DNA of 64,000 bases from Pseudomonadota bacterium (lineage in GTDB: Bacteria; Pseudomonadota; Alphaproteobacteria; Rickettsiales; SXRF01). Positions 18,353 through 45,626 of the stretch are shown here, one piece after another. Location of the stretch: assembly GCA_963205245.1 (NCBI GenBank), contig CAUJIB010000007.1, positions 446 to 64,445 on the forward strand, in the 5' to 3' direction. The position numbers and the translations under genes were made by a program. Each line of letters starts with the position of its first letter. The first letter of the stretch is position 1. The notes beneath the pieces are model-generated. The model saw nothing but the letters and a program-made list of their open reading frames with translations, was not told the DNA's origin and made no database searches.

Positions 18353-18455
18353 AACATTGCTATAAAAATATTAAAATTTAGTTAATTTTAATAGTGCCGT
18401 ACTTGATAATATGTTGGCAAATCCCTGATTATGTGTTATCACGCCTGAAATTTTA

Positions 18456-21944: not shown

Positions 21945-22891
21945 AAAAAATTGGCTTATTCGATACTTCAATCGCTTCAGATAATCTTGGCGATGGTATA
22001 ATTATGGATGCAGTGAGCAGCCACTTGCGCGCTATGTATCCTACTGATCAATTTATTAATGTGCCTACTCATATAAAAATGAGTGCGCAAAACCGTGCAG
22101 ATATAAAAACCAGTGAAATTGGTTTCGTGGGCGGAACAAATTTGTTATGCGCAAATTGGCTGCTCAAAGCGCAGTGGAAAGTGGGCTTATGGGATTTGCT
22201 CTATGTTCCAAATACTGTGCTTATGGGTGTGGGTTGGAAATTTTACCAACGCCCAACCGAATTTGTTACGGCATTATTTCTAAAGCAGCTTCTTTCCAAA
22301 AACTATATTCATTCGGTGCGCGATGCTTATACCGAGCAACGCTTGAGAACGATGGGCATAAATAACGTCATCAACACGGCCTGCCCAACGATGTGGAACC
22401 TTACGCCTGAACATTGTGAGTTCATACCCACGAAGCGCGCGCCGCATGTTCTTACCACTGTCACTGCTTATCGCTATGATCCTGAGCTGGATAAAAAATG
22501 GTTGGAAATTTTACTCGCTGCTTATGATAAAATTTATCTCTGGCCGCAAATGCAAGGCGATGCTGAATATGTTCAGGCTATGAATCTTGGCAAAAAAATT
22601 GAGGTGTTAGAGCCAACTCTTTCTGCTTATGACAATGCCCTTGCTACACTTGACGTGGATTTTCTTGGCACACGTTTGCATGGCGGTATCCGCGCTTTAC
22701 AGCATAAACGCAGAACCTTGATTATAGAGGTGGATAACCGCGCAGTGGAAATCGCCCGTGATACTGGTCTGCCTACTATCAAGCGCGATGATGTGGCTGG
22801 GATAAAAAACTGGATAGAAAGCACTACCCCGATAAAATTAACCCTGCCTTGGGAAAATATCAAAAACTGGAAAGCACAGTTCCGGAAATAA
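21941..22891 (+). CDS. polysaccharide pyruvyl transferase-like protein
   Basis: N-terminal SDNLGDGII motif and size typical of CsaB/WcaK-type enzymes. Confidence 0.65.
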   Translation: MKKIGLFDTSIASDNLGDGIIMDAVSSHLRAMYPTDQFINVPTHIKMSAQNRADIKTSEIGFVGGTNLLCANWLLKAQWKVGLWDLLYVPNTVLMGVGWKFYQRPTEFVTALFLKQLLSKNYIHSVRDAYTEQRLRTMGINNVINTACPTMWNLTPEHCEFIPTKRAPHVLTTVTAYRYDPELDKKWLEILLAAYDKIYLWPQMQGDAEYVQAMNLGKKIEVLEPTLSAYDNALATLDVDFLGTRLHGGIRALQHKRRTLIIEVDNRAVEIARDTGLPTIKRDDVAGIKNWIESTTPIKLTLPWENIKNWKAQFRK

Positions 22892-22912: not shown

Positions 22913-24397
22913 TCAAAATATCCGCGTGCGGTTGCGCGGGTGATTGGGATTGTTCGGATTATTTGGATCTCGCGTACGATCAGCAAAACTTTTGTCGTCC
23001 GGATTGAGCGGCGAGGCGGGAGAGATATTAGCGGACGCTCCAAGATTTTTTGCTTCCCGCGCTATTTTTGCATTCATATGCAGCATGTCATTGGCTTGTT
23101 TATGGCTTTTATGTATTGCGCTTCCTGCCTGCTTGATGGCGGCCATGTCTATTTTTCCTAAAGCTTCAACTGTTTTTGAATCTCCGCGCAGGTTAGCAAG
23201 AACCCTCTCGTGTTGAATAGCGGTGTAAGCCTTATGGGCTGCTTTATTTATTGCTTTATGCATATGTTGACGGCGACGGCGACGGCGCATTTTTTCTGAT
23301 TGCTCGGCAAGGGCAGATTCGGTTTCTTCTTTATGCTCATGCTTTTTATGCGCTTCAATTTCTTCATTGGCTTTTTCCACGCCGCCTTCCATTTTATGCA
23401 TCAGGCGGTTGAGGCTCACACTCTGGAATTTTTTTGCACCTTCAATATCAGCTGATATTTGCTGTAGTGATGATGCTTGATTAGGTATTTCTTTAGCGGC
23501 CATCAATTTTATTCCATTTGCGCAATTACCCGCTGCATCATTGGCATTTTTTACCCGCTCATCATTGATGATATTAGGGTTGGTACGCATTGCCTCAGAA
23601 AGCAGGTTTTTGTAAACATCAAGCATTTCTGAAACCCTTTTAGCAAAGGCAAGTTTTTCATTTGGCCTGCCTGTATCAATTGCATCTTCTATATTCCTGT
23701 CGCTGAACGTCATATTTTTTAAGCGGCGTAATATTTCCCGTGCTAATTCTATGGATTCTTCCCGCGCAGGATCCTCCAACGTGTCAATAGAATAAAGCTG
23801 CCGCACCGCGTCTTGAATAATATTGCTGACTTCAACCAGCCTATCCACAGGAGATCGGTCGCCAAGCGGTTTATTCAAAAGATGGCTAAGTCCGCTTTCC
23901 AGAGAATCTATCAATTGTTCAGTACTCTGCGTTTGCCTGTTATCCCATTCCGGTAAAATTTCATCAAGCTCGCTATCTAAAGCATCTGCCGAAGGGCTAT
24001 CTTCAGGCAGGTTTTCTAGAGTATGCAGTGTGACAGAAACTGCTATACTTCCCACAGCATGGTTAGCGTGATCAATAGTAAAATGATTAAGTAAATCAGG
24101 ATTGCTGATTTGCGCGATTTTTACCTGTCCGGTATAAATATTAATCAGGTTTTCCAATATAGATATTTTGGTTTGTTGCTCGGTCAGGCTATCAATCTTA
24201 AGCCAGTTTTCCATATCTTGCGGCAGGCCTTGCAGATTCCTCAGGAGGCGCAAATTTTTTCGCACTGTTTCTATGATATTGTCCTGCGTAGGTGGAACAG
24301 GTAATGATTCTGGGGATTGCAGTTTATGCGCTATATCAAGCAGTGCGTAGCTGCTTACGAGCAATTTACCTAAAAGGTTTTGGGATTGTTCTTCCAT
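22913..24397 (-). CDS. hypothetical protein, helical/coiled-coil, basic patch and Pro/Asn-rich tail
   Basis: 494-aa ORF with an RRRRRQH patch and a C-terminal DPNNPNNPNHPRNR tail. No enzymatic motif. Confidence 0.5.
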   Translation of the reverse strand: MEEQSQNLLGKLLVSSYALLDIAHKLQSPESLPVPPTQDNIIETVRKNLRLLRNLQGLPQDMENWLKIDSLTEQQTKISILENLINIYTGQVKIAQISNPDLLNHFTIDHANHAVGSIAVSVTLHTLENLPEDSPSADALDSELDEILPEWDNRQTQSTEQLIDSLESGLSHLLNKPLGDRSPVDRLVEVSNIIQDAVRQLYSIDTLEDPAREESIELAREILRRLKNMTFSDRNIEDAIDTGRPNEKLAFAKRVSEMLDVYKNLLSEAMRTNPNIINDERVKNANDAAGNCANGIKLMAAKEIPNQASSLQQISADIEGAKKFQSVSLNRLMHKMEGGVEKANEEIEAHKKHEHKEETESALAEQSEKMRRRRRRQHMHKAINKAAHKAYTAIQHERVLANLRGDSKTVEALGKIDMAAIKQAGSAIHKSHKQANDMLHMNAKIAREAKNLGASANISPASPLNPDDKSFADRTRDPNNPNNPNHPRNRTRIF

Positions 24398-31785: not shown

Positions 31786-32214
31786 TTAGTTTTGAGGATT
31801 GGATGGCTGTGGAGGGTTTATAGGTGCTGCAGATAATATTTTATCAAAGTCAATTTCAGTATCACTTTCCTCTAGATCTTTAGGGTTAAGACCAAATATT
31901 TCAGCTACTTTCTCAGTTACTTCACGTGGTGGGGTTCTTCCTTTGCCTGATACGACAATTTCACCATAAGAATCTTTTACAAAATTCTGGATATTATATT
32001 TATCAGCAATTGCTTTTTGGAATTTTTTAGCAAGGCTAGGCTTTACTGCTACATAACACCAATATGAGCCGCGTGTTTCCATAAGACCGCGTACCAGCAT
32101 AACAAGGCGTGATGTGTTATCTCTATCATCAGCCGTAACGCCTGACATTAGTTCTACCTGTGCACCAAGGCAACCGTTGCATCTTGCATTCTTTCGGCAA
32201 ATTTGCTTGCCCAA
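31786..32214 (-). CDS. hypothetical protein (likely start at the internal ATG, 32148)
   Basis: ORF only. Forms a pair with the upstream small membrane ORF. Confidence 0.4.
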   Translation of the reverse strand: MGKQICRKNARCNGCLGAQVELMSGVTADDRDNTSRLVMLVRGLMETRGSYWCYVAVKPSLAKKFQKAIADKYNIQNFVKDSYGEIVVSGKGRTPPREVTEKVAEIFGLNPKDLEESDTEIDFDKILSAAPINPPQPSNPQN

Positions 32215-32411
32215 TGTCCTACAACGCCGCCAGCTATAGCAGAACCAATAGCAGTAAGAGCTTTACTCCCACCTATAATTGTTGCTACTTCTGCGCTAGA
32301 AGCCACAAGAGCAGTAATAGCAGCCGCTCCAATAATTACAGAACCCCAATTCACATCTTGTAAAGCCATAATCTTCTCACTATTTAAGTATGTCAAAAAC
32401 TTTATGTTCAT
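32154..32411 (-). CDS. small glycine-zipper membrane protein
   Basis: GSVIIGAAAITALVASS...IGSAIAGGVVG hydrophobic Gly-rich segments. Confidence 0.35.
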   Translation of the reverse strand: MNIKFLTYLNSEKIMALQDVNWGSVIIGAAAITALVASSAEVATIIGGSKALTAIGSAIAGGVVGHWASKFAERMQDATVALVHR

Positions 32412-32605
32412 ATAGTAACATAAAATATAAAAAAATTATATTACAATTATATGAAAAGATCATTACATGCTAATATTCATATTTTTCAGTATATTAATAA
32501 ATTGTAAAAAATATATTATTTAATTTAATTATATATAAATTAAGATTTATATAGTTTAATATATTTTAAGCAATGTCTTATTATGTTATGAATAACAGGT
32601 AGATT

Positions 32606-33871
32606 ATGAAGTATCTAAATTTGAGTGTCAGTAATTCTACTTTTGAAAATAAGAGCAAGAGAGTTACTCATTTGCATGAAGATGGAACATCAAATAAAAT
32701 AGATATATTTTATGAATTCGACAGAATTATCCCTTGGTCTGATAAAACTCTTTTGGATGCTCATCTGTTGTCTGTTTTAATGTATGCTTCAAAGCGTGGG
32801 AAAAATATAAAAGTTTACGGTACAATTTCTCATCAGTTGTTGCGTAATATAGAGGAATATTTATTAGCTTGGCATAGATGGCGGCCGGAGATTTATAAAG
32901 TTATAGAAATTATTCCTGAACGAATAGAAACAGTTATTAAAAGTCCTTCTCAGGAAAAAGCCATTGCTGCTTTTTCCGGTGGTGTTGATGCTACATTTAC
33001 TGCTTTGCGTCATACTAGAATGCTACCGGAATCTACACGTTATCCATTACGTGGTGTTGTAATGGTGCATGGGTTTGATGTGGATATATATAATCATAAT
33101 GGTTTTGCGCGTCTTATTAAGAGAGTGCAGCCATTATTGGATGATTTGAAGCTGGATTTACGTACAATCCGTACTAATAGCCGTGAATTAAAACTACAGG
33201 ATTGGGAAGATTCGCACGCGCTAGAATTGGCAGCATGTTTGCATATGTATTCAGATGAATTTAATTTTGGCCTTATCGGTAGTACGGATTCTTATGAGGC
33301 CTTAGTGTTGCCGTGGGGATCTAATGCAGTTACAGATCGTTTGATGTCAGGAAATAATTTTTCAATAATTCATGATGGTGCCGGATTTTGTAGGACAGAT
33401 AAAGTTGCAGAAATAGCAAAACACCCTCTTGCCTGTAAGGTATTAAAAGTTTGTTGGGCGGGCGCAGATCAAAGTGATAATTGTGGAAAATGCGAAAAAT
33501 GTGTACGGACTCACCTTAATTTTCTAGCTGTAGGAATGAAGGATAAACCTTCTTGTTTCCCTCGCGAACTTGATCTAAATCTTATAAGTAAAATGGAATT
33601 ACAGTCAGAGGGGCATTTTGCAGAAGTTGTAAGCATCGCAGAATATGCAAAAGCTCATAATATAATTGGTAAATGGGTAGATTTATTGAATGAAAGAATA
33701 AAAATATGGCATCCTATGGATGCTGATATATTAGAGAGAAAGAAAAAAGGTGGTTGCCTGAAAATTGTAATAGTGACAATATTGCAATGTGCGAATCTGG
33801 AAAAGCCGGCAAAAAAAATATGGCGACGGTTGCGTCGTGCCATGGTAAAGCTGAGCATAATACCGCAATAA
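32606..33871 (+). CDS. uncharacterised PP-loop ATP pyrophosphatase-superfamily protein, QueC-like Zn motif (paralogue A)
   Basis: SGGVDAT PP-loop at 32975-32995. C-x9-C-x2-C-x2-C (CWAGADQSDNCGKCEKC) at 33452-33502. Extra about 120-aa N-terminal domain and a basic tail. Confidence 0.6.
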   Translation: MKYLNLSVSNSTFENKSKRVTHLHEDGTSNKIDIFYEFDRIIPWSDKTLLDAHLLSVLMYASKRGKNIKVYGTISHQLLRNIEEYLLAWHRWRPEIYKVIEIIPERIETVIKSPSQEKAIAAFSGGVDATFTALRHTRMLPESTRYPLRGVVMVHGFDVDIYNHNGFARLIKRVQPLLDDLKLDLRTIRTNSRELKLQDWEDSHALELAACLHMYSDEFNFGLIGSTDSYEALVLPWGSNAVTDRLMSGNNFSIIHDGAGFCRTDKVAEIAKHPLACKVLKVCWAGADQSDNCGKCEKCVRTHLNFLAVGMKDKPSCFPRELDLNLISKMELQSEGHFAEVVSIAEYAKAHNIIGKWVDLLNERIKIWHPMDADILERKKKGGCLKIVIVTILQCANLEKPAKKIWRRLRRAMVKLSIIPQ

Positions 33872-33887: not shown

Positions 33888-33964
33888 GCACCCGTAGCTC
33901 AGCTGGATAGAGTGTTGCCCTCCGAAGGCAAAGGTCGGACGTTCGAATCGTCTCGGGTGCGCCA
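33888..33964 (+). tRNA. tRNA-Arg (anticodon CCG), encoded CCA
   Basis: Hand-folded: acceptor GCACCCG/CGGGUGC, anticodon stem UUGCC/GGCAA with loop CUCCGAA, T loop UUCGAAU. 77 nt. Confidence 0.9.
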
Positions 33965-34800
33965 TTCTTCGATATCGGTCGCTTTGGCATAGAGGTCAAA
34001 GAGCTTACGCAAGGAAAACAGCAACTCTCCGCCTTTCAGCGAGAGGTTAGAAAAGACAAACCCCAGAAGTCGGCGTTTTCCGCTATTGTTTGAACTGATG
34101 AACAATTCGTGGGCTTTTCTGCCGAGTTCGAGCGTATCGGCCACGGCATCGCGGAATCCGTCATCGGCCATGTGGTAGCTGTTCAGCTGGTTGGCGAGCT
34201 CAATCTGGCGGGCTTTGAATTTCTGGCGTTTCAGGTCGTGTTCCTGCTTGGACACCGCACCATCGAGCAGCAAGTCCATCAGCTTGTCGAGCTTACCCTG
34301 AATCCCTTCGCTTTCGCTCTGGAGCTTCTGAATCTGGCGTTTATGGAACACCTTCTCGGATTCACACGCCTAGCGCGCATAAGCGACCACATCCTAGAAT
34401 AAATCATCATCGGGCGACATGGATTTGAACACCTGCTCCACCTGCGCCATCACCTGTTCTTCACGCACCCAGAGCTTTTTAGCTGGATTCTCAGTACTCC
34501 AGCACATCAGGTAGGTATATTCCGCCCTGCGGCCATTGCCGTAGGTTTTCACCTTGGTGTCCGCCGTCACCACCTTGCCCGTGGTGGCGCAGGTGAGAAG
34601 CCCACGGAAGACATAATCTTTCTCGCCGTAAGCAAAGGGCTTTTTGTGCCAGCCAAACCGCACTGCTTGACACGCATCGTAGAGTTTTTTGGTAATCAGC
34701 GGTTCATAGACATGGGGGAAATTCCTCCCCTTACGGGCAACGAATGCGGCAAGGTCTGACAGGTGGTTTTTACCAGTCGCCCCACCTTGACGTAGGGCAG
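33965..34800 (-). pseudogene. large serine recombinase remnant (N-terminally truncated, frameshifted)
   Basis: Fragments in at least two frames: HVYEPLITKKLYDACQAV / KKPFAYGEKDYVFRGLLTCATTGKVV (recombinase and zinc-ribbon-like region), then a C-terminal coiled coil (33965-34351). No catalytic resolvase domain. Confidence 0.65.
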
Positions 34801-35326
34801 ATCATAGCGGCTTTCGCTCGCCCACGCGTCGAACAAAACGCAACAAAATAGGTGTCGTAAATGTCCTGATGGTGGGATGGTAATGTCATAAGCCGCTGCC
34901 GCTGTTTGGTTTTTTAACCACTATACAACATCCACGTGATTGCACCAGTATCTATGAAACTATCCGTGCAGTCACCCACCATACCCCCCACGGCTTAGGT
35001 ACGTCCTGCGATAATCCTATACGGGGGCGCAAGGCGCAGCATTTCGCTAGCGACAGAAAACATATTTGCATTTCGTTTCGGTTTTATTGGCGCAAGCGAT
35101 TGAAAATCGTGACGATGCTGAAAATCCGAACAGAAAAACATGCCGTGAAACATTTCGCAAACAGCTACAGGATAGGATGCTTGCATCCTTGTAAACTGAA
35201 AACTCAACTTTCAATTTTCAAGGATATTTTGTGCGGATTGTGTGAAGAAGTGGTTATATTGGCTTGCGAATTTAAAAGCATAAATCAACTAATGTTGCAA
35301 TTTTACGCGGATCGCCTTAAAAGCAA

Positions 35327-35340
35327 TTGATACACATCAA
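35327..35340 (+). promoter_or_regulatory. FNR/FixK box TTGATACACATCAA upstream of the fnr-like gene
   Basis: Perfect TTGAT-N4-ATCAA palindrome ending 19 nt before ATG 35359. Confidence 0.7.
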
Positions 35341-35358
35341 TCATTCCTATTAAGACTT

Positions 35359-36084
35359 ATGAAATCAACATTATCACCATTTTATTCGCTTAACGAACAG
35401 CCGCTTTTCCAAAACCAGCCAACGGTATTACATTCACTTATGCCGCATACCAAAATAAAGATTTACAATAAGGATGATGTTGTTTTGCACCACGGCGATG
35501 TGGCAGTAAGACTGTGGTTGGTGCTAAAAGGCTGGGTGAAGCTCACGCGTCAAACCCCAGATGGGAAAGAAAGTATAATCGGTCTGTGCACTGAGGGGGA
35601 TGTATTTGGTGAAGCGGCGTTGTTTCCACATGCAAATTATCCATATCACGCGCAAACACTGGCGGCGCACACGCAGCTTGCGGCAATTCCAGCGGATATT
35701 ATTCGTAAATTGATTGCAGAAAATGCAGCGTTTTCGGGTGTCGTCATGGAACTGCTAAATGAGCGAACATCACAGGCGCAGCTTAAGCTAGAGCAGATGA
35801 GTACCATGTCCGCATCACAGCGCTTGGGATGTTTTTTGCTGCGGTTGTGTCACACGCAGGCAAATGGATCTAAGACGCTGACGATTCCCGTAGAGAAGCA
35901 TATTTTGGCAGCTTATTTGGGCATGAAACCAGAAACGCTTTCGCGTAGTCAGCAGCAATTAAAACCGCTTGGGCTATCGGTGACAGGGCAAGATATCACT
36001 ATTAGTAATATTGAGAAACTCCGAGAGTTTGTATGTAATAGCTGTTCGGAATCTGGCAGTTGTGAAGCGGAAGCGACAGGCTAA
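35359..36084 (+). CDS. CRP/FNR-family transcription regulator (FixK/FnrL-like)
   Basis: cNMP-binding-like beta-roll. HTH with the E--SR recognition motif (PETLSRSQQ). C-terminal CNSCSESGSC cluster. Confidence 0.85.
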   Translation: MKSTLSPFYSLNEQPLFQNQPTVLHSLMPHTKIKIYNKDDVVLHHGDVAVRLWLVLKGWVKLTRQTPDGKESIIGLCTEGDVFGEAALFPHANYPYHAQTLAAHTQLAAIPADIIRKLIAENAAFSGVVMELLNERTSQAQLKLEQMSTMSASQRLGCFLLRLCHTQANGSKTLTIPVEKHILAAYLGMKPETLSRSQQQLKPLGLSVTGQDITISNIEKLREFVCNSCSESGSCEAEATG

Positions 36085-36503
36085 TCCTGCAACATAGTCT
36101 CTAACGCCTTTGTAAGTCTTCCCGTATTAGAAGGCGCACTAAACCACGCCAACATCAGTGGATATTCAATTTCAGCTACTACTTGTTTGGACACGGAAAT
36201 TGGCAATGAAGCCTGCGTCCACGAAATATCATTGGCGCTGCCTACCAATACAAGCTGACTAAAATCACCATGTTCCAAGGCATTAGTTAGGCGATCACGC
36301 AGATCATTTGCAAATGAGGATATATTGCTCCCATTCTCCAAGAGCGGTGACAGATGCCCATCCGATTGCTTCTGGAATAATGCCGCCATCCCCTCGCATG
36401 CTGCCAGCACCCATACATTTGACTTTGTGCGACAACCGCCACTCTTGCATTTGCCAGAGCAGGCTTTGTTTGTGGTGATGGGTGTGATGGTACAGCCAGA
36501 CAT
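36081..36503 (-). CDS. hypothetical protein, host-attachment-protein-like core with Cys-rich N-terminus
   Basis: VWVLAACEGMAALFQKQSDGHLSPL resembles the N-terminal strand of host-attachment family proteins. Assignment is by recollection only. Confidence 0.35.
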   Translation of the reverse strand: MSGCTITPITTNKACSGKCKSGGCRTKSNVWVLAACEGMAALFQKQSDGHLSPLLENGSNISSFANDLRDRLTNALEHGDFSQLVLVGSANDISWTQASLPISVSKQVVAEIEYPLMLAWFSAPSNTGRLTKALETMLQD

Positions 36504-36505
36504 GG

Positions 36506-36559
36506 CTAGAACTTATAACCAAAAAGTACCGCTAGTGCACCATAAACAATCTTTTTCAT
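36506..36559 (-). CDS. 17-codon hydrophobic small ORF (MKKIVYGALAVLFGYKF)
   Basis: AAGGAG Shine-Dalgarno 6 nt upstream. Its stop lies 2 nt before the next ATG, and an FNR-like box lies about 56 nt upstream. Confidence 0.25.
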   Translation of the reverse strand: MKKIVYGALAVLFGYKF

Positions 36560-36614
36560 AAGTTCTCCTTCATTTATTACTGCGCTGAAAATAGACGAGT
36601 AAACCCAGCAATCC

Positions 36615-36628
36615 TTGATTTGTGTCAA
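36615..36628. promoter_or_regulatory. FNR/FixK-like box TTGATTTGTGTCAA
   Basis: TTGAT-N4-GTCAA (one mismatch to consensus) in the divergent region between the small-ORF operon and the DUF465 pseudogene. Confidence 0.55.
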
Positions 36629-36683
36629 GCGCTCACTTCACCTGCGTGACTATGTTGGTTGGGAACAACAAAAGTAGTTATGT

Positions 36684-36923
36684 ATGCCACTTGAAAATCA
36701 CAGCCTGATCAATGAATTTCTAGAAATGCGCGAGCGCATTCACCAGATAAAAACATCTGACAATCATTTTGCGAGGTTATTTGCGGAATATGATTAGGTA
36801 GAACATTCTGTACACCGCATTGAGTCAGGTGCATAATCAGGCTCAGATGCGCTGGAGACATTGAAGAAACAGCGCCTTAGCCTTAAAGATGAGCTCTTTG
36901 GCTTGCTGATAAAAGCGGCGTAA
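36684..36923 (+). pseudogene. DUF465 (YdcH-like) gene with two in-frame stop codons
   Basis: MPLENHSLINEFLEMRERIHQIKTSDNHFARLFAEYD*VEHSVHRIESGA*SGSDALETLKKQRLSLKDELFGLL. TAG at 36795-36797 and TAA at 36834-36836, all in one frame. Confidence 0.65.
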
Positions 36924-36927
36924 GCCG

Positions 36928-37317
36928 CTACCACTCCATAGTTCGTGCCATGGTTTCGTGGTGCAGGCGTGAGCGGATTACCAAATCCTGCCATTGTTTG
37001 TGCTGCATTGCCTGCATTTGTAAGAGGTTTCCAGTAGCGTGGCCAATGCCAGAGGCTCGTTGCCAATCGTTCCATGCATCCAGCATCGTCTCAGGAGAAA
37101 TCCCAAGCGCTTTACTGTGTGCGTGTAATTTATCACGCCAGAAATTTTTGGTTTTTTCATCATGACCGTGGCTCATATGCGAGGTGGCTAGGCGCTGCGG
37201 ATGCTCCAACATGATCTTACGCCAATGCTCTAACAATTTTTCAGTTTCAGCATTTGAGGTATCAAATGCCGGAAGCTGATTGACATAATCATGCAGTAAC
37301 AAACCGATATTCTGCAC
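36928..37317 (-). CDS. hypothetical His-rich protein (GTG start), possibly the distal part of a split gene
   Basis: 129-aa ORF that opens 4 codons after an in-frame TAG and overlaps the upstream ORF by 29 nt. Confidence 0.3.
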   Translation of the reverse strand: MQNIGLLLHDYVNQLPAFDTSNAETEKLLEHWRKIMLEHPQRLATSHMSHGHDEKTKNFWRDKLHAHSKALGISPETMLDAWNDWQRASGIGHATGNLLQMQAMQHKQWQDLVIRSRLHHETMARTMEW

Positions 37318-37531
37318 CCGACCGCTGCACTATGGGGTCAAGTGTTTTCTCAATGGAGATGCGCGGAGCATCTGTCGATATACGGTGGCGCGGTGCGCTT
37401 GTATGTTCTTTTATTTTTAGATTTTCCAGCGCTTTATTTAGCAGAACTGGGTCTTCATGATGCATCAAATCATGCACGGCATGCGGTAAATATGTGAGCA
37501 AAAAGGGAATATCGTCACCATGCCATTTCAT
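37289..37531 (-). CDS. hypothetical protein coupled to ccoS (ATGA overlap)
   Basis: 80-aa ORF whose ATG overlaps the ccoS stop. Confidence 0.3.
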   Translation of the reverse strand: MKWHGDDIPFLLTYLPHAVHDLMHHEDPVLLNKALENLKIKEHTSAPRHRISTDAPRISIEKTLDPIVQRSGAEYRFVTA

Positions 37532-37683
37532 GCTACGTCCTCGTCTTCGTCATCACGCAACACCCGATGCGCTGCGCCGTCTAAATCCTCAAACTGCCCA
37601 TTTCTCATCGCCCAGAAGAACGCCACTAGCCCAGCCAATCCCAAGGTAAGCGCTATGGGAATGAGGTAGAGGAGTATGTTCAT
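37528..37683 (-). CDS. ccoS: cbb3 oxidase maturation protein CcoS/FixS
   Basis: Not in the ORF track; translated by hand as MNILLYLIPIALTLGLAGLVAFFWAMRNGQFEDLDGAAHRVLRDDEDEDVA. ATGA overlap with the ccoI stop. Confidence 0.85.
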   Translation of the reverse strand: MNILLYLIPIALTLGLAGLVAFFWAMRNGQFEDLDGAAHRVLRDDEDEDVA

Positions 37684-39821
37684 GACTTCCTCGCATTGAG
37701 TCGAATCGCATTAGCAATCACTAGCAGCGACGAGCTGGACATGGCAATGGCGGCGATCAGCGGCGTCACCATGCCAGCAACGGCCAATGGTATAGCAACC
37801 ACATTATATAGAATCGCCAGCAAAAAATTTTGTTTTACCAGTGTTTGTGAATATTTTGCGGTTTTCCAAGCGTTGATTACGGGCTGTAATCTATCACCCT
37901 GAAACACAATATCAGCCGCATTTTGTGTAATGTCCATCGCACTAGCAGGCGACATGGATATGGTGGCAGAAGAAAGTGATGGTGCGTCATTTAGCCCATC
38001 ACCGACCATTAGCACCTTTGCGCCGCTGGTTTTTAGCAACGCGATCTTTTCGGTTTTCTGCACAGGCGATAATGCGCCCTCAAATATCTCAATCCCCAGC
38101 TTTTTGGCAATGTCTTTTGTCACTTCCTGCCGATCACCTGAAAGCAGAATGGTTTTGATGCCAGCGGATTGCAAGGTAGTGATAATTTCTTTTGCATCGA
38201 CGCGTAGTTGATCGGCAAAGGTGAAGCGAATGGGCGACCTGTCATCTTCTGTGAGCCATAATTCCAGTGTATTTTCACCATCATCAGCCAGTTGCGTCGC
38301 CCAACTTCTTTTACCCAATTTAATGCCCTTGGCTTCAAGCCCGCAGCCTTGTACTTCATTTACCGTAAGTGGCAATAATTGGCCAGCATAGGCCTTGCTA
38401 ATTGCCTGTGATAGTGGATGTTTGCTATGTGCTGCGAGTGAGGCTGCTAGCTGTAATTGCTCACTGGAATGAGTAGAAGAGAGGGTTGGTTTGCCCAGTG
38501 TCAGCGTTCCTGTTTTATCAAACACAGCATAGGTGATTATCGCAAGTCGTTCCAACGCACTGCCGCTTTTAAGCAGAATACCGCTACGCATCAGCTTGCC
38601 ACTGGCGAGCACCTGCACCACCGGAACAGCAAGACCCAGCGCACATGGGCAGGTGATAATGAGCACGGTTGCGGCATAAAGCAATGCCACTTGCCACGCT
38701 ACGCTTCCAAACACCATCCAACCAATAAATGTTCCCGCCGCCAGAAAATGCACCACGGGCGTGTACCAGCCGGAAATTTTATCCGCGACAGTGACATATT
38801 TCGCCTGGGTTTGCTCAGCAGACTCCATGAGCTTGATGATTTCCGAAAGCAGCGAACGCTCGCCCGCCTTGGTAACGCGCATGGTGATGGGCGCGGTCAT
38901 ATTGATGGTTCCTGCAAATAACGCCTCACCCACATTCACCTTACGCGGCTGGCTTTCACCAGTGATTAGACTGGTATCAATTTCGGATGCGCCAGAAATT
39001 ACCACGCCATCCGCACCGATCTTCTCACCCGCTGCAACTAGTAGCACTATGCCTTCTTTTATCTCAGAAAGTGGGATTATTTCTTGTTTGCCACCTTCAT
39101 GTAAAACAGTCGCAAACCCCGTCATCATTTTCAGCAAATCATGGGCAGCAGAACGAGCGCGGCCACGAGCACGGGCTTCGAGATAACGCCCGATGAGCAG
39201 GAAAAACAGCAGCATCACGGCGGAATCAAAATAGGAATGTGAGCCAAAGGTGACAGTTTCAAACAAGCTCATAAGCGTGGCGAGAATAACCGCCACCGAA
39301 ATCGGTACGTCCATATTGGTTTTCCACGCACGCAAGACCTTCCACGCCGACCGGTAAAAAGGCATGCCGCAATAAGCAATGGCTGGAATCGCTATTGCCG
39401 CCTGCAACCAATGGAAAAATGTGCGTGTTGCCGCGCCCATTTCAACACTATCGCTTGTCCATAGCGGGATAGAAAATAACATCAGATTGCCACTGGCAAA
39501 GCCAGCTACAGCCAAGCAGCTCAGCAGGAATTTCTCTTCTTTCTTCTCGGCAGTTTCAGCGGTTGTTGGGTCAAACGGCACGGCACTGTAGCCCATGCCA
39601 TTAATTAGCTCTACCCACTTATCGCCTAGCTCCAAAGCACCGTTCCACGTTACGCGCAAACGTTTGGTAGAGAGGTTGAGGCGCGCTGTTTGGACTGCCT
39701 GCTGCTTCTTCAAACCATTTTCAATAATTGCCACGCAACTCGGGCAATGTATTCCATCCACCAGCAGATTTACGTTGTGTGTGCCGTCAGATTCAGTTGT
39801 GATGAAGGGTTTGGTGGTCAT
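37680..39821 (-). CDS. ccoI: copper-translocating P1B-type ATPase CcoI/FixI
   Basis: N-terminal HMA CPSC, TM CPC motif (ITCPCALG), DKTGT and GDGLND. Confidence 0.93.
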   Translation of the reverse strand: MTTKPFITTESDGTHNVNLLVDGIHCPSCVAIIENGLKKQQAVQTARLNLSTKRLRVTWNGALELGDKWVELINGMGYSAVPFDPTTAETAEKKEEKFLLSCLAVAGFASGNLMLFSIPLWTSDSVEMGAATRTFFHWLQAAIAIPAIAYCGMPFYRSAWKVLRAWKTNMDVPISVAVILATLMSLFETVTFGSHSYFDSAVMLLFFLLIGRYLEARARGRARSAAHDLLKMMTGFATVLHEGGKQEIIPLSEIKEGIVLLVAAGEKIGADGVVISGASEIDTSLITGESQPRKVNVGEALFAGTINMTAPITMRVTKAGERSLLSEIIKLMESAEQTQAKYVTVADKISGWYTPVVHFLAAGTFIGWMVFGSVAWQVALLYAATVLIITCPCALGLAVPVVQVLASGKLMRSGILLKSGSALERLAIITYAVFDKTGTLTLGKPTLSSTHSSEQLQLAASLAAHSKHPLSQAISKAYAGQLLPLTVNEVQGCGLEAKGIKLGKRSWATQLADDGENTLELWLTEDDRSPIRFTFADQLRVDAKEIITTLQSAGIKTILLSGDRQEVTKDIAKKLGIEIFEGALSPVQKTEKIALLKTSGAKVLMVGDGLNDAPSLSSATISMSPASAMDITQNAADIVFQGDRLQPVINAWKTAKYSQTLVKQNFLLAILYNVVAIPLAVAGMVTPLIAAIAMSSSSLLVIANAIRLNARKS

Positions 39822-40255
39822 TCTACGACAATACGTTTTCTTTGCTGATAATGCACGCCCTCATGCTCGGTATCTACCCGCACTTCCCACAAACCGTTTG
39901 CTGGAAAATATATAGTCGTTTCCGCGCCCTTTAACTCCACCGTAAAATCCATACCTTGTTGTGTCGGGCGGGTTATGGTGGCGGTGGTTTTTTCAGGAGC
40001 GATAGGCAGATTGTTTTTGTCGTGCAGCGCAAAATGTAGCGCACCATTTTTGTAATCAATAACGCCTTTCCACCCAAGTGACTCTTGCTTTTTCTCAGCG
40101 TCCACCACCTGATTATAAACAAGACCTTTTTCATATGGATGCTCGGTGACAACGCCGCTATGGGTGCGGATGGCGAGCGTGACCATCACCGCATTCACCG
40201 CTGCGACAAAGCCGAAAAACGCCACAAAATACCACCATACGCGCCTGCCAGTCAT
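39818..40255 (-). CDS. ccoH: CcoH/FixH cbb3 oxidase assembly protein
   Basis: Single N-terminal TM (WYFVAFFGFVAAVNAVMV) and size typical of FixH. 4-nt overlaps on both sides. Confidence 0.8.
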   Translation of the reverse strand: MTGRRVWWYFVAFFGFVAAVNAVMVTLAIRTHSGVVTEHPYEKGLVYNQVVDAEKKQESLGWKGVIDYKNGALHFALHDKNNLPIAPEKTTATITRPTQQGMDFTVELKGAETTIYFPANGLWEVRVDTEHEGVHYQQRKRIVVE

Positions 40256-41541
40256 CGTCCCTCACTTACAAAAATTGTGTCTTTGGCTGTAGTGATACTG
40301 CTGCTGGTTTCCATGAGTTGGAATGTTATTTCACGGCGATGATTGGTTTGTTTTTCAGCAGTGATGAACACGCGGAAATGCCCTACGGAATCGGCGAATA
40401 CGGGCAGATTATCTGCAGGAATATCGTTGCTCGCCTGCACGCGAATGGCAGCATTTTCGATGCCTTGTACGGTGAGCGCGTAATTCTTATCCTCATGATG
40501 TTTGTTGATGATCGTAATGTTGTAGCCATTACGCACAGAACCATCGGACAGCTTCACGAATAATGGATTGCGGTCGTGAATAACATTCATCTCCAGCGGT
40601 GAGCGCGTGAGCAAGCTATAGAGCATTAAACACCCGACCAGCGCGATAATTCCGCTATACCAAAAGGTGCGCGGACGGAAGGGGTTAAACTTTTCTTTGC
40701 TCTCCGTGTCATAGCGGATAAGGCCTTTGGGTAGACCAATTTTTCCCATCACATTATCACACGCATCGACGCATAATCCGCAGGCGATGCACTCCATCTG
40801 CAACCCTTCACGAATATCAATTCCCATCGGGCAGACGACGACACATGAGTCACAATCAATGCAATGGCCTTTACCTTCCCAACTATCGCCCGCTTTATGT
40901 TTTCCGCGTGGCTCACCGCGTGTTTCATCATAAGCTATAATCAGTGTATCTTTATCAAACATGGCGGATTGAAACCGCGCATAGGGGCACATATAGGTGC
41001 AGACCTGTTCACGTGCGAAACCCGCCATGAGGTAGGTAGAAAAAGTGAGTCCTAGAATCCAACCACCAACGCTCCACGGCACATCTAAATGTAAAATTTG
41101 ATCGAGTAATGTCGGGGCATCATTAAAATAAAACACCCACGCACCGCCAGTGCAGAGGCCGATGATGAGCCAGATGATGTGTGTGAGTCCCTTTTTGCGT
41201 ATTTTCTCTAATGTCCATTTTGATTCATCCAGTTTTTTGCGGGCATTTCTGTCGCCCTGCACAATGCGCTCTACCCACACGAATAAATCTGTCCAGACCG
41301 TCTGTGGGCAAGCATAGCCACACCATACGCGCCCAAATAGGGAAGTGACGAAGAATAATCCTACCGCCGCGAGAATTAAAATGCCGGTGATATAATAGAC
41401 TTCCTGCGGCCAGATTTCTATGCCGAAGAAATAGGCGCGTGTGTGATTGAGGTCGATAAGAATTGCTTGATCAGGGGATTGCCCGCCACGATGCCAACGC
41501 AGCCACGGCGCACCGTAATAAATAGCGAGCAATGTCACCAT
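40252..41541 (-). CDS. ccoG: CcoG/FixG cupric reductase/ferredoxin; 5-prime end frameshifted relative to the ancestral ATG at 41630
   Basis: CGYACPQ, CIDCDSCVVVCP and CIACGLCVDAC motifs. The conserved KIYPRRVWGRFRKLKW lies in frame upstream of Met-41541 but has no in-frame start codon. Confidence 0.85.
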   Translation of the reverse strand: MVTLLAIYYGAPWLRWHRGGQSPDQAILIDLNHTRAYFFGIEIWPQEVYYITGILILAAVGLFFVTSLFGRVWCGYACPQTVWTDLFVWVERIVQGDRNARKKLDESKWTLEKIRKKGLTHIIWLIIGLCTGGAWVFYFNDAPTLLDQILHLDVPWSVGGWILGLTFSTYLMAGFAREQVCTYMCPYARFQSAMFDKDTLIIAYDETRGEPRGKHKAGDSWEGKGHCIDCDSCVVVCPMGIDIREGLQMECIACGLCVDACDNVMGKIGLPKGLIRYDTESKEKFNPFRPRTFWYSGIIALVGCLMLYSLLTRSPLEMNVIHDRNPLFVKLSDGSVRNGYNITIINKHHEDKNYALTVQGIENAAIRVQASNDIPADNLPVFADSVGHFRVFITAEKQTNHRREITFQLMETSSSITTAKDTIFVSEGR

Positions 41542-41633
41542 CGACAGCCATTTCAGCTTACGAAACCTGCCCCATACACGCCGTGGATAGATTTTTTCTT
41601 GTTTTTTGAAGAGCTGTATAGGCGCTGCATTGA

Positions 41634-42518
41634 TTATTCCTTCGGTTTGTCGGCTTCGCCCCCACCGAGTGAATGTACATAAATACTCAGCTGCTTAATA
41701 GTCTCATCCGGCAGTCGCGTCTCCCAGGTTGGCATCACACCATGGCGCGGATTAGTCACTTGCTGCATGATGCTGGCCTTGTCACCGCCATAGAGCCAAA
41801 TCGCATCAGCCAAATTTGGCGCACCAACTTGTCGCCCTCCATGGCCGGTATCGCCATGGCACGAAGCACAATTCTGCTTGAAAATGGCTGCCCCTTGTTC
41901 ACTATCACCTTTGCCACTGGAGAGGCTAAGTACATGGTCGGCAACGCTTGAAATTTCATCGTGCTTCAGGATTTCACCAAACTCAGGCATTTGCGATGTA
42001 CGCGTATCTTCATGCGTAGAGCGAATACCAACTTTGATGGTGTGGTATATGGATTCAAGGTCGCCGCCCCACATCCAGTCATCGTCGTTTAGGTTAGGGT
42101 AGCCCCTTCCACCGGCTGCACCAGTGCCGTGGCACGCAGCGCAGTTTTCCTTGAACATGGTTTTGCCGCCTGCGATAGCGAAAGCGTAAAGTTCGGGGTC
42201 ATTCTGGATTTCTTCCAGGGAGTGCGATTTTATTTTTGCTGCAAGCTCTCCCCTCAGACTGGTTATTTCCGCCTGTTCTTCAGCCAGTTTTTTATATGAT
42301 GACCAGCCGAGCGTGCCTTTGGTATACCCTGAAAGTGTGGGCCATGCAGGGTACACTATCCAGTATCCTACCGCCCAGATACAGGTGATAGCAAACATAA
42401 CCAGCCACCAGCGCGGTGCCGGAATATTCAATTCTTTGATTCCATCCCACTCATGACCAGTGGTTTCCACGCCGGAATGCAGGTCTATATCTTTGTCTTT
42501 ATTTTTATGGTCAGCCAT
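41634..42518 (-). CDS. ccoP: cbb3-type cytochrome c oxidase subunit P (dihaem)
   Basis: Two CxxCH sites (CAACHG, CASCHG) and an N-terminal TM. Confidence 0.93.
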   Translation of the reverse strand: MADHKNKDKDIDLHSGVETTGHEWDGIKELNIPAPRWWLVMFAITCIWAVGYWIVYPAWPTLSGYTKGTLGWSSYKKLAEEQAEITSLRGELAAKIKSHSLEEIQNDPELYAFAIAGGKTMFKENCAACHGTGAAGGRGYPNLNDDDWMWGGDLESIYHTIKVGIRSTHEDTRTSQMPEFGEILKHDEISSVADHVLSLSSGKGDSEQGAAIFKQNCASCHGDTGHGGRQVGAPNLADAIWLYGGDKASIMQQVTNPRHGVMPTWETRLPDETIKQLSIYVHSLGGGEADKPKE

Positions 42519-42664
42519 TAATTTTCCTCCGACAGTGGGATATAAGCATGGGCTTGTAATTTTTCTTTCGCACCAGGGCGATATGCGCGGTACGCTATCA
42601 CTACAAATACGCTGAAGAAGAAAACCAGACCTATGGAAGGCGCATGTTCATATAAAAAATTCAT
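42518..42664 (-). CDS. ccoQ: cbb3-type cytochrome c oxidase subunit Q (FixQ)
   Basis: Not in the ORF track; 48 aa, [53 protein letters not shown] junctions with both ccoO and ccoP. Confidence 0.7.
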   Translation of the reverse strand: MNFLYEHAPSIGLVFFFSVFVVIAYRAYRPGAKEKLQAHAYIPLSEEN

Positions 42665-43455
42665 TATTTGCTCCCACTAGCGTCTTTTTCATTAAGATTA
42701 ATATCGTAATCTTTTATATCAGCAAGCGTGCCGAGCGTTTGCAGATAAGCAACCAGGGCATCCATTTCCGACACAAAGTTTTTCTGCCCATCGAAATCAC
42801 GGACATTCACTTTCTTGCCATAGCGGGCGTTTAAACCAGACGGGTCGCTGTCGGCATGTGCCTGTGCCATCGCGTCATTATAGGCGTTCTCGATCATATC
42901 ATCGGTATAAGGTACGCCAACAGTGCGGTATGCTTTCATAAGGTTTTTAATATCCAATAAATCTACCCCATGGTTTTTCATGAAGCTGTAAGATGGCATG
43001 ATGGATTCAGGCACTACATCCCTTGGGCGCGTAAGATGTGCTGTGTGCCATTCGTCGGAATATTTGCCGCCCACGCGCGCGAGATCAGGACCTGTACGCT
43101 TGCTGCCCCAGAGGAACGGGTGTTCATACATGCTTTCCGCCGCGAGGGAATAATGCCCGTAACGCTCTACCTCATCGCGTAATGGGCGTATCTGCTGGCT
43201 ATGGCATGCTGTGCAATTCTCGCGGATATAAATTTGTTCCCCAGTTAGCTCCAGTGGTGTCAGTGGGCGCATGCCGCTGACTTTTTCGATGGTGGTTTCT
43301 ATGCGAAACAGCGGTACGATTTCAACCAATCCGCCAATGGAAATCACTATGATAGAGAATATCAGCAGAAGTACGGAGCTTTTCTCAATTTTCTCGTGTT
43401 TTTCAAGCATTGCCAGCATCCTTATTATTGTGGGCATTTGCGCGGGATTCGACAT
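42664..43455 (-). CDS. ccoO: cbb3-type cytochrome c oxidase subunit O (monohaem)
   Basis: CTACHSQ haem site and FixO-like core. The true start is probably an internal Met ([13 protein letters not shown]). Confidence 0.93.
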
Positions 43456-44890
43456 TGTTTCCAGTGATGGTTTTATAGCAGTTATATATCATGATAAGCA
43501 TTCCTGATAGATAGAGAAGACCGCCAAGTGCGCGGATAATATAATATGGGTGCATAGCTTCCACAGTTTCCACAAAGGAGTATTCAAGGAAGCCCATAGA
43601 GTCGTAAGCGCGCCACATAAGCCCCTGCATGATACCAGCAACCCACATTGCGGTGATGTAGAGCACTATGCCTATAGTGGAGACCCACAGGTGGATATTC
43701 ACAAGGCGCATGGAATACAAGCCTTTTTTTCTCCATAGCACCGGCACCATATGATAGAGTGCTCCAAAGCTTATGAATGCCACCCAGCCAAGTGCGCCGG
43801 AATGCACGTGACCGATGGTCCAATCGGTGTAATGCGACAGTGAATTAACTTCCTTTATAGACATTAGTGGTCCTTCAAATGTACTCATGCCATAAAATGC
43901 CAGAGCGACAACCATGAAGCGCAGTACGGCATCGTCGCGTAGCTTGTTCCACGCGCCAGAAAGCGTCATTACGCCGTTAAGCATCCCGCCCCAGCTTGGC
44001 ATCCATAGCATGATAGAAAATGTCATGCCCAGAGTTTGCGCCCAGTCTGGCAGGGAGGTGTAATGCAGATGGTGTGGCCCTGCCCATATATATATGAATA
44101 TAAGTGACCAGAAATGTATTATCGAAAGGCGGTAGGAATATATAGGGCGGTTGGCACGTTTGGGGATAAAATAATACATGATGCCAAGGAATCCTGCGGT
44201 AAGGTAAAAGCCAACCGCATTATGCCCGTACCACCATTGGATGAGGGCGCTTTGGACGCCACCCCAGACCGATACTGATTTTGTGCTCAACAAAGATACG
44301 GGAACGCTTACGCCATTTACCAGATGCAGAACGGCAACTGTTGCGATAAATCCCAGAAAAAACCAGTTTGCCACGTAAATATGTGGTTCTTCGCGCCTGG
44401 CCAGTGTCATCATATAAATTAGCAGGTATGATACCCAGACTATGGTGAGCCACAAATCAGCGTACCATTCCGGTTCGGCGTATTCTTTGTTCTGCGTAAT
44501 GCCAAATATATAGCCTGTTGCCGCCATAATGATAAAAAGCTGGTAGCCCCAGAAGGTAAAATTCGCGAGCTTATCGTTCCATAAGCGCGTACGACAGGTG
44601 CGTTGTACAACAAAATAAGAGGTAGCAAAAAGCACGCTGCCGCCGAAGGCAAAAATCACTCCCGATGTGTGCACAGGGCGCAGGCGGCCAAAGCTGAAAT
44701 ACGGTTCAAAATTAAGATCGGGAAATGCTAATTGCAGAGCAATCACCAGCCCCACCAACATTCCCACCGTGCCCCAAAACAGTGCGGCAATGGTGAATTT
44801 CTTGACAATGTCGTCATTATAAATTGGCGCAGCCTTCGTTGGCACATAACGTGGATCGATTTCAACTTCACGTTCGTTTGGGGATTGCAT
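43403..44890 (-). CDS. ccoN: cbb3-type cytochrome c oxidase subunit N (catalytic)
   Basis: 12+ TM segments with haem-copper oxidase His ligands ([24 protein letters not shown]). Confidence 0.95.
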
Positions 44891-44894
44891 GTTT

Positions 44895-45542
44895 TTACCT
44901 CATTACTTTTGCGGCCAACACTAACAGTGCCAGCCCGTTAAGCACTATACCAAAGCGGCCAATTCCGCGCATCATTTCCTGCCATTTCACTGCCAGCATA
45001 GCAGCCCCGCCGCTTGCCACCAGCAAGGCCGGAATCGTCCCCAACACAAATAACCACATCGCAAACATTCCTACGAGTGGGTTGGTGAATGTTGCAGCCA
45101 TCATCAGCGCGGCATAAATCAATCCGCAGGGCATAAAACTCATCAGCACACCACGTAAAAAAGCATTTTTAGGCGTATAGGCAAGCAATGCATGTTGATT
45201 AGGTACAATAGCACTGAGCAGGAATAATCCACCCGCCATCACCATCATCGTCGCTGAAAGTGCTGGCCAATACGATGCTGCCGCAAGTTGCTTGGAAAGT
45301 AGTGCGACAGAAAAACCAAGTGCTCCATAGGTTAAAAGTCGTCCCAGATGATACTGCCATTGCGCTGCCGCGCTCATACGCTTGCCACACCCACCGCCAC
45401 ATGCTGACTGGCACGCCACCACCGGCCCGCACATGACAAGGCAATGGGTGAGGCTGCCTGTCAGTCCTCCTAGGAAAAATACGGCAAACAAGCCCCCATG
45501 CTGGGAAAATGCCACTGAACAATGCACTAATAATGCTTCCAT
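44895..45542 (-). CDS. DsbD_2/TauE-like membrane protein upstream of ccoN
   Basis: [16 protein letters not shown] motif, 6 TM, 4 nt upstream of ccoN. Start set at ATG 45542 rather than the tracked TTG 45602, which lies inside the FNR box. Confidence 0.6.
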
Positions 45543-45588
45543 CAACAATCCTTTGGGAAGCACTCTATAATTAAGATGTTTCAGTGCC

Positions 45589-45602
45589 TTGATTTGAATC
45601 AA
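45589..45602 (-). promoter_or_regulatory. FNR/FixK box TTGATTTGAATCAA upstream of the cco operon
   Basis: Perfect TTGAT-N4-ATCAA, centred about 53 nt upstream of ATG 45542. Confidence 0.75.
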
Positions 45603-45626
45603 GGGTATTAGATCAATATCCTCAAT

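Follow-up and report, generated by a model that had tools for sequence, protein, structure and literature searches.

The 64,000-nucleotide stretch of a Rickettsiales genome analyzed here (the window) carries on its plus strand, at 32606-33871, an open reading frame (ORF) of 421 amino acids (aa), which we call copy 1, together with a paralogue, copy 2. We propose that copy 1 encodes a soluble, membrane-peripheral PP-loop ATP pyrophosphatase that would work together with a polysaccharide pyruvyl transferase (PyrT) to decorate a surface polysaccharide (capsule, exopolysaccharide (EPS), or O-antigen), a reading to which we give a probability of about 0.6. The family to which it belongs quite probably consists of glycan-modifying partners of pyruvyl transferases, and the reaction that we suggest for it, amidation of the pyruvate ketal, is put forward tentatively by analogy with other PP-loop enzymes.

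Pyruvyl transferases as neighbors and fusion partners

Gene neighborhoods were compared in 86 loci, each consisting of the family gene with up to 10 kb per side, in which ORFs were called and clustered and which were dereplicated to 59 lineages. The commonest neighbor was a protein of ~360 aa found in 40 of the 86 loci, encoded on the same strand as the family gene and either overlapping it or lying within about 200 bp of it, upstream or downstream, and this protein was identified as PyrT (Pfam PF04230, E = 3e-33). After dereplication, PyrT lay within 10 kb of the family gene in 22 of 59 lineages and directly adjacent to it in 14 of 59, and adjacent pairs turned up throughout the family tree, the window's own clade (loci L010 and L012) included. 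Recurrent capsule or EPS genes were located no more than 5 kb from the family gene in at least 35 of the 59 lineages, a lower bound in which singleton glycosyltransferases were left uncounted. The other recurrent neighbors assigned by Pfam were GT2, GT4, CapD/Polysacc_synt_2, Wzx, EpsG/Wzy, Wzc, and Bac_transf, and additional neighbor clusters resembled, by sequence, Wza and a DegT-type aminotransferase.

The K-type loci of Psychrobacter, flanked by housekeeping genes on both sides, show the order Wza-Wzb-Wzc-CapD-Wzx-GT2-family gene-PyrT-GT2-GT4-EpsG-GT2-GT4-BacTr-DegT, and no carboxylate-introducing enzyme other than PyrT was recognizable in these loci. Ugd-type dehydrogenases were found near the family gene in only two loci; PyrT is therefore the one recurrent carboxyl-introducing neighbor, and uronic acids were rejected as a candidate substrate on the same count. 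In Azospirillum, PyrT and the family gene form a free-standing two-gene cassette among unrelated genes, beside a TetR/RND (resistance-nodulation-division) efflux operon, and in Pelagibius (L089) the order is PyrT, a TylF-type methyltransferase (6914-7630 in L089), the family gene, and Wzx.

The two proteins also occur as a single polypeptide. Sixteen of the best 150 family representatives are 590-1182 aa long, and 12 of 18 long homologues combine the family domain with PS_pyruv_trans, all above the Pfam gathering score. These fusions reappear with the same lengths in assemblies made independently (JGI, ENA, and Logan), and two of them had been named pyruvyl transferases by their sources ('WcaK-like' and 'EpsI'). 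Another four long homologues have no second Pfam domain. P0205 and P0285 carry N-terminal extensions of ~400 aa that match no Pfam family. Because adjacency in both orders, a free-standing cassette, and repeated fusion were all observed, functional partnership with PyrT is the best-supported statement about the family.

A further arrangement was seen in eight loci from cyanobacteria, Thiobacillus, and some others (L027, L056, L060, L062, L064, L069, L081, and L085), where an AsnB-like PP-loop protein (~600 aa, SGGLDS, N-terminus MANF..., without the usual Cys2) is encoded directly upstream of the family gene, so that two ATP-pyrophosphatases stand side by side in one polysaccharide locus.

Motifs, fold, and relatives of the family

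A search of 5.8 billion proteins yielded 545 full-length homologues of copy 1. As the first-pass annotation, made from the DNA alone, had reported and a script confirmed, the 421-aa ORF contains the ATP pyrophosphate-binding PP-loop SGGVDAT (32975-32995, plus strand; aa 124-130). It is followed by a four-cysteine (Cys4) motif, CWAGADQSDNCGKCEKC (33452-33502, plus strand; aa 283-299), with the spacing C283-x9-C293-x2-C296-x2-C299 within KVCW...NCGxCEKC. In an alignment of 58 sequences, S124, G126, and D128 of the PP-loop and the motif cysteines 283, 293, 296, and 299 are invariant; the motifs are thus not a product of chance, and the ATP-binding residues are retained on alignment. Further invariant positions are H155-G-F-D158, R173, T190-N191, C211, R263, and K266, and the N-terminal domain is conserved as well (D51, G72, W89, and Y97). 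Azospirillum members (L015, L016, L018; P0081) have the PP-loop variant SSGLD in place of SGGxD, in which the aligned S124, G126, and D128 are kept.

The whole-chain AlphaFold2 model of copy 1, built with the family alignment (predicted local distance difference test score (pLDDT) 94.1; predicted template modeling score (pTM) 0.92), comprises an N-terminal alpha/beta domain (aa 1-111), a Rossmann-like core (aa 112-280) with the PP-loop after its first strand, the Cys motif, and a C-terminal helical domain (aa 325-420) that closes with a long helix (aa 399-418). The extra N-terminal domain (~110 aa) and the basic tail that had been noticed in the translation are both borne out. A Foldseek search of the PDB with the whole chain placed the QueC-like protein Cap9 first (probability 0.98, E = 0.04, template modeling (TM) score 0.62 on a 181-residue target), followed by GMP synthetase (GMPS), TtuA, NadE, TilS, YcfA, and asparagine synthetase. 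With a model of the core domain (aa 112-325, pLDDT 91.6), the best match was LarE (E = 1e-3), and GMPS, NcsA, MnmA, NadE, TtuA, and the nitrile synthetase ArtA were also retrieved (probabilities 0.96-1.00, E >= 1e-3, TM scores <= 0.5).

Searches of Pfam, NCBIfam, PADLOC, and the PDB, with the single sequence or a 58-member profile, gave sub-threshold, motif-level matches only, and assignment to a library family was rejected; as had been stated, the protein is uncharacterized, since no curated library assigns it. For copy 1, Pfam DUF6395 (PF19932) scored 15.8 bits (cut-off 25, E = 0.015, aa 276-311 only) and Pfam QueC (PF06508) 12.9 bits (cut-off 22, aa 281-305, the Cys motif, only), and the NCBIfam models LarE (15.1 bits, cut-off 150), NadE (14.6, 255), and GuaA (13.2, 339) covered only the PP-loop at E ~ 0.01. 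PADLOC and PDB sequence searches with copy 1 returned no match, and the family profile matched PDB sequences only in the PP-loop region of GMPS (E = 0.045). When the 58 members were scanned singly, weak matches were obtained to DUF6395 in 54 (best E = 2.8e-6), QueC in 52 (best E = 3e-4), LarE in 31 (the most frequent NCBIfam match), GuaA in 17, and TilS and an AsnB-type model in one each; the TtcA model matched none of them. Compared with generic PP-loop ATP pyrophosphatases (LarE, GMPS, NadE, MnmA, TtuA/NcsA, TilS, and ArtA), the family shares the Rossmann-like alpha/beta/alpha core and SGGxD, but TM scores do not exceed 0.5, identities are 12-20%, scores fall more than 100 bits short of the curated cut-offs, and the flanking domains and genomic context are different. 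Judged by model and alignment, copy 1 is a genuine, deeply divergent PP-loop ATP pyrophosphatase with a QueC-type Cys4 motif, which forms its own family and is not QueC.

DUF6395 is the only library family that recognizes the lineage: relatives at ~44% identity carry this annotation, and the length (~400 aa) and phyletic range are alike. Its Pfam model (174 positions), however, covers only the Cys motif and the C-terminal part, and it has no assigned function. As far as sequence comparison can place it, copy 1 is most aptly regarded as a divergent clade within the sequence superfamily that includes DUF6395.

The first-pass annotation called the protein QueC-like and considered a role in nucleic-acid modification or defense possible. 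Such a role would imply an enzyme like QueC (7-cyano-7-deazaguanine synthase), QatC, or Cap9 (of type IV CBASS) that produces a 7-deazaguanine derivative or conjugates one, whether to modify DNA or tRNA or to defend against phages. This identity would agree with the order of a PP-loop ATPase and a four-Cys motif, spaced C-x9-C-x2-C-x2-C here and C-x8-C-x2-C-x2-C in the QueC zinc site. The Pfam QueC model indeed aligns to aa 283-299 through profile positions 181-205 of 210, its zinc-site region; Cap9 is the best whole-chain PDB match; sub-threshold QatC matches were found in 15 of 58 members with NCBIfam (best E = 0.0096) and in three of 58 with PADLOC (best E = 0.018); and a basic tail could bind nucleic acid. 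The QueC and QatC matches span only ~25 residues, however, and all 58 members stayed far under the cut-offs (best E for TIGR00364 (QueC), 0.063), PDB QueC entries were absent from the sequence and fold matches, and the core is no nearer to QueC than to LarE, GMPS, NcsA, MnmA, NadE, TtuA, and ArtA. The label 'QueC-like' therefore holds for the Cys4 alignment and the Cap9 match but is too specific for the protein as a whole, which differs from QueC, Cap9, and QatC in its extra N-terminal domain and in a C-terminal helical domain of ~120 aa that bears an amphipathic tail.

The context also differs from that of the QueC-type systems. The family occurs among polysaccharide genes, its partners are PyrT and capsule or EPS genes, and que, tgt, and defense partners are lacking: queD/E/F and tgt are found near neither window copy, as had been said of copy 1, and these genes, QatABD, and CD-NTase with its TGT-like partner Cap10 are absent from the recurrent neighbors in the 86 loci. 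The leader of copy 1 (32412-32605), a 194-bp intergenic region between divergent genes that is as AT-rich as previously described (12.9% GC), has promoter-like hexamers on both strands and contains neither a riboswitch, of the preQ1 class or another, nor any other Rfam element. Viral contigs seldom carry the family (eight family loci in 2.9 million contigs, none with PyrT nearby), and an association with phages was rejected on these numbers. Context has thus already largely refuted the QueC or defense interpretation, which we regard as very improbable; the earlier description is partly supported, right on architecture and wrong on function.

The fold matches raise a second possibility, namely sulfur insertion of the LarE/TtuA/NcsA type: a carboxylate or carbonyl would be adenylated and its oxygen exchanged for sulfur, with Cys211 or an Fe-S cluster bound by the Cys motif taking part, to give a thiocarboxylate or thio-sugar. 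LarE is both the best core fold match and the most frequent weak NCBIfam match, C211 is invariant besides the Cys4 residues, and TtuA and NcsA are among the proteins of similar fold. All these matches are nevertheless restricted to the generic PP-loop region at TM scores of at most 0.5, and the C-x9-C-x2-C-x2-C spacing fits zinc sites such as that of QueC, not the three-Cys [4Fe-4S] sites of TtuA and NcsA; furthermore, sulfur-carrier or cysteine-desulfurase genes are not recurrent nearby. We know of no thio-modified bacterial polysaccharides of the thiocarboxylate or thio-sugar kind, and sulfur insertion seems to us highly unlikely.

Relatives were confirmed in at least 577 species-level genomes of Alpha-, Beta-, and Gammaproteobacteria (including about 16 Psychrobacter), cyanobacteria, Actinomycetota, Acidobacteriota, Chloroflexota, Planctomycetota, and Verrucomicrobiota, and an exhaustive hidden Markov model search of 1.84 billion 50%-identity representatives retrieved 8,250 sequences at E <= 1e-3 and 2,631 at E <= 1e-30. 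The distribution is patchy, with several paralogues per genome. The closest homologues of copy 1 come from metagenome-assembled genomes (MAGs) labeled Rickettsiales or Alphaproteobacteria. Within the window's clade the family has expanded: the 465-kb contig JAOAUZ010000002.1 of MAG ssMAG-31 (L003, L011, and L090) carries at least four paralogues, including a tandem pair that is missing from the same syntenic block in L100, and expansion was also seen in L008 and L099. One homologue, P0048 (L087, contig_1810, 1.86 Mb), lies amid transposases, a TrwC relaxase, and a phage-type integrase, and members of the family can thus be carried by integrative mobile elements.

A candidate reaction on the pyruvate ketal

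All characterized PP-loop enzymes use ATP to adenylate a carbonyl or carboxyl oxygen with release of pyrophosphate (PPi), after which AMP gives way to a nitrogen or sulfur nucleophile, a chemistry reviewed by Fellner et al. (2018; cited in PMC10607449). By analogy with this common chemistry, the family enzyme presumably also consumes ATP to form an adenylate. Because the PyrT partner creates a carboxylate, the most economical inference is that the family adenylates this group on the lipid-linked unit and makes an amide. The substrate, nucleophile, zinc binding, and membrane association that we infer would combine as follows. The cationic amphipathic C-terminal helix would keep the enzyme on the cytoplasmic face of the membrane, the site of lipid-linked repeat-unit assembly, where PyrT would add the 1-carboxyethylidene group (pyruvate ketal) from phosphoenolpyruvate. 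The PP-loop domain would then use ATP to adenylate an oxygen in a carboxyl or carbonyl group of the glycan, the ketal carboxylate being the likeliest target, with release of PPi, and displacement of AMP by ammonia or an amine would give an amide and neutralize the charge. The Cys4 motif, a presumed zinc site by analogy with QueC and NASAT, would have a structural role, and the family-specific N-terminal domain would shape the substrate pocket.

The model for such a reaction is QueC, which takes a carboxylate through an adenylate to an amide. Amides and nitriles are formed from carboxylates by QueC and ArtA, and Cap9 joins an amine to such a carboxylate. It is conceivable, although we would not count on it, that the family gene and PS_pyruv_trans constitute a widespread two-enzyme module in which the ketal is installed and its carboxylate is then converted to a carboxamide, or to a nitrile or an amine conjugate. 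To our knowledge, modification of the pyruvate-ketal carboxylate of a polysaccharide to an amide, nitrile, or amine conjugate has never been described.

The C-terminal helix of copy 1, KKIWRRLRRAMVKL (33812-33853, plus strand; aa 403-416), may anchor the protein in the plane of the membrane where repeat units are assembled. Such an anchor would fit because the hydrophobic moment is highest at the C-terminal segment in both window copies (0.77 in copy 1 and 0.72 in copy 2), neither copy has a transmembrane segment, and K/R-rich C-termini are seen across the family; in copy 1, the last 25 residues include eight K/R and one D/E.

The best functional precedent for the family is NASAT, an enzyme of lipopolysaccharide (LPS) biosynthesis with a PP-loop at residues 122-127 and a zinc-binding Cys4 site (tetracysteine motif CXXC-Xn-[GN]XCXXC), which adds ammonia to a sugar N-acetyl group (PMC10607449). 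The family resembles NASAT/WbuX/WbpG/PseA (TIGR03573; PDB 8WEX) in combining a PP-loop with Cys4, in the near-identical position of the PP-loop, and in its occurrence in glycan loci (for NASAT, LPS, capsule, or flagellin-glycan loci), although the shared glycan-locus context (at least 35 of 59 lineages) is no proof of membership. In copy 1, by contrast, the Cys motif follows the PP-loop domain, only GKCEKC fits the second half of the NASAT motif, and the first pair is C-x9-C, not CXXC. TIGR03573 matched neither copy 1 nor any of the 58 members, and 8WEX was absent from the profile-versus-PDB matches at E <= 10 and from the top 50 fold matches. We know of no pairing of NASAT with pyruvyl transferases. 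Also comparable are AsnB-type amidotransferases (such as WbpS and exosortase-associated asparagine synthases), which are PP-loop enzymes of O-antigen and EPS clusters that amidate carboxylates; the family proteins are, however, much shorter, lack a glutaminase domain, and show no significant similarity past the PP-loop.

The PP-loop enzyme might also act on a glycan group other than the pyruvate ketal, PyrT being a parallel decorator and not the supplier of the substrate. Possible products would be uronamides or amino-acid amides of uronic or ulosonic acids, as with AsnB-type WbpS, or acetamidino groups, as with NASAT/WbuX/PseA. This alternative draws on the strong polysaccharide context, on the action of NASAT, itself a PP-loop enzyme with a zinc Cys4 site, on sugar N-acetyl groups, on the presence of KdsA and NeuB near two close relatives, on the AsnB-like PP-loop gene adjacent in eight lineages, and on two fusions to O-methyltransferases. 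PS_pyruv_trans nonetheless dominates the fusions (12 versus 2), PyrT is the immediate neighbor in 14 of the 22 lineages that have it nearby and the lone companion of the family gene in the Azospirillum cassette, Ugd-type genes are scarce, and the NASAT model never matches. We consider a different target group rather unlikely, though the most probable of the alternatives.

Several observations weigh against our proposal that the family works with PyrT and amidates its product. In a 2019 review on the pyruvylation of glycans, amidated pyruvate ketals go unmentioned; the predicted product is therefore without a known example, which makes it new and is equally a caution. The searchable literature does not mention DUF6395 and contains nothing on a PP-loop enzyme with a pyruvyl transferase, a QueC-like protein with a polysaccharide, or an amidated carboxyethylidene, and one paper on a Psychrobacter capsule is uninformative. 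Invariant C211 and LarE as the best core match leave room for sulfur chemistry. In 24 of the 59 lineages the clustering recovered no polysaccharide gene within 5 kb of the family gene, and some family copies lie on mobile elements or beside ThyX. Two of the 18 long homologues (P0303 and P0227) are fused to an O-methyltransferase of the Methyltransf_24/TylF/CmcI type, and the domain may therefore partner with decorating enzymes in general. Finally, neither window copy adjoins a polysaccharide gene, and the PyrT encoded in the window belongs to another PF04230 subfamily than the usual neighbor and lies 9.7 kb from copy 1.

The two window copies and the meaning of the family

Copy 1 is not unique in the window, which also holds copy 2, missed by the first-pass annotation, at 54609-55883 (plus strand; 424 aa, 52% identity over 413 aa), which has the same PP-loop, Cys4 motif, and basic tail. 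A capsule/EPS-type locus occupies both strands at 13471-22891, 10-19 kb upstream of copy 1, and encodes an epimerase, a GT4, and GNVR/Wzc-like and Poly_export/Wza-like proteins on the minus strand and Wzy_C, Acyl_transf_3, GT4, and PS_pyruv_trans on the plus strand. The last of these (21941-22891, plus strand; PF04230, E = 1.2e-20) is the candidate partner in trans; it has a single homologue among the fetched loci (L010, 43% identity), which lies 1.3 kb from the family gene of L010. In the Rickettsiales-labeled ssMAG-31 (L090), a 59%-identical paralogue is situated between a major facilitator superfamily gene and Wzx and is followed by the same series as in the window at 11975-17371 (411-aa ORF, epimerase, GT4, and Wzc-like), and further close relatives were found inside polysaccharide loci in L010, L012, and L013. 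The window's clade thus shares the polysaccharide association, and both window copies are detached from it and would act in trans.

Two ORFs bordering the polysaccharide locus match no Pfam family. One encodes 413 aa (11975-13216, minus strand) with a signal-peptide-like N-terminus and has the 411-aa ORF of L090 as its counterpart. The other encodes 494 aa (22913-24397, minus strand), is highly charged and of low complexity without transmembrane segments, has a Pro/Asn-rich end (...PNNPNNPNHPRNRTRIF), and sits between the polysaccharide locus and a PilQ-type secretin gene.

Upstream of copy 1 and divergent from it lie c50 (32154-32411, minus strand; Gly/Ala-rich, 85 aa, one transmembrane-like segment) and c51 (31786-32148, minus strand; ~120 aa), the latter from a lineage-restricted family of 46 proteins. 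Homologues of both hold the same position in two MAGs (L003 and L008), and the pair occurs without the family gene in the same syntenic block of L100 and at another site in L101. A three-gene module was rejected on these grounds; c50-c51 is a syntenic neighbor of copy 1 and not an obligate partner, and the comparison with L100 shows the family gene to be variably present, as is usual for decorating enzymes. Units of the c50-c51 type (80-85 aa plus 110-120 aa; also in L099) were seen in uncultured Alphaproteobacteria-type MAGs and have no Pfam match, and the unit of L101 adjoins a PTPS/QueD-family gene.

On the other side, a tRNA-Arg(CCG) gene (33888-33964, plus strand) begins 16 bp after the stop codon of copy 1 and is regarded as context, not as part of the system. 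Beyond it the GC content rises to about 48% (47-50%) for 12 kb (33888-46000), against ~40% on the other side; the copy 1 gene has 36.7% GC and the preceding 32 kb average 40.2%. From the tRNA edge and the GC jump, copy 1 is therefore placed on the host-like side of an island boundary, and the tRNA/island junction was confirmed by two independent Logan assemblies (L001 and L002). ORF fragments on the minus strand at 33899-34663 might, from their appearance, be remnants of a recombinase, but a PDB sequence search with them gave no match.

Copy 2 has other neighbors. An ABC-3C conflict system (56343-59700, plus strand; ~35% GC) starts 460 bp after it, with Pfam-assigned CTD6 (56343-57338) and MC2 (57326-57832); its 623-aa ORF weakly matches a solved DUF3732 protein, 9hqu (E = 6e-4). 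This proximity and the abutment of copy 1 on a tRNA-flanked island are points in the window that could speak for defense, but about 90 other family loci were compared and not one has the family gene next to ABC-3C or Sua5, and the defense reading built on such neighbors was rejected.

Sua5/TsaC (53598-54527, plus strand) ends 82 bp before copy 2 on the same strand, and the family could accordingly be pictured as a housekeeping enzyme of tRNA or nucleotide metabolism or, failing catalysis, as an ATP-binding scaffold for the pyruvyl transferase. One relative overlaps ThyX, and tRNA is the substrate of many PP-loop families. The patchy distribution, the several paralogues per genome, and the variable presence within one syntenic block speak against a housekeeping gene, however, and no housekeeping tRNA-modification family was found for copy 1, the tRNA-modification models being unmatched at their cut-offs. 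The Sua5 adjacency is unique to the window, and the link to Sua5/TsaC was rejected for that reason; the family-wide invariant residues of catalytic type speak against a mere scaffold. Either role appears to us very improbable.

Copy 1 is thus an ordinary, detached member of a distinct PP-loop family coupled to polysaccharide pyruvylation, and its interest lies in the prediction made for the family. For annotation, 'hypothetical protein' or 'QueC-like' can be replaced by a testable role, and proteins with a PP-loop and a Cys4 motif should not be read as defense or queuosine genes. Few charged decorations of capsules, exopolysaccharides, O-antigens, and cell-wall polymers are as common as pyruvate ketals, and these influence recognition by phages and the immune system, the rheology of biofilms, and the anchoring of S-layers. 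The tie of the family to PyrT in adjacency, order, and fusion implies that glycan pyruvylation includes a step overlooked by present-day pathway schemes and by tools for serotype prediction. Should the product be an amidated ketal, such ketals may have gone unnoticed in structural surveys, and a canonical anionic decoration would be switched to a neutral one in thousands of bacterial lineages, which would give a handle on how bacteria tune their surface charge.

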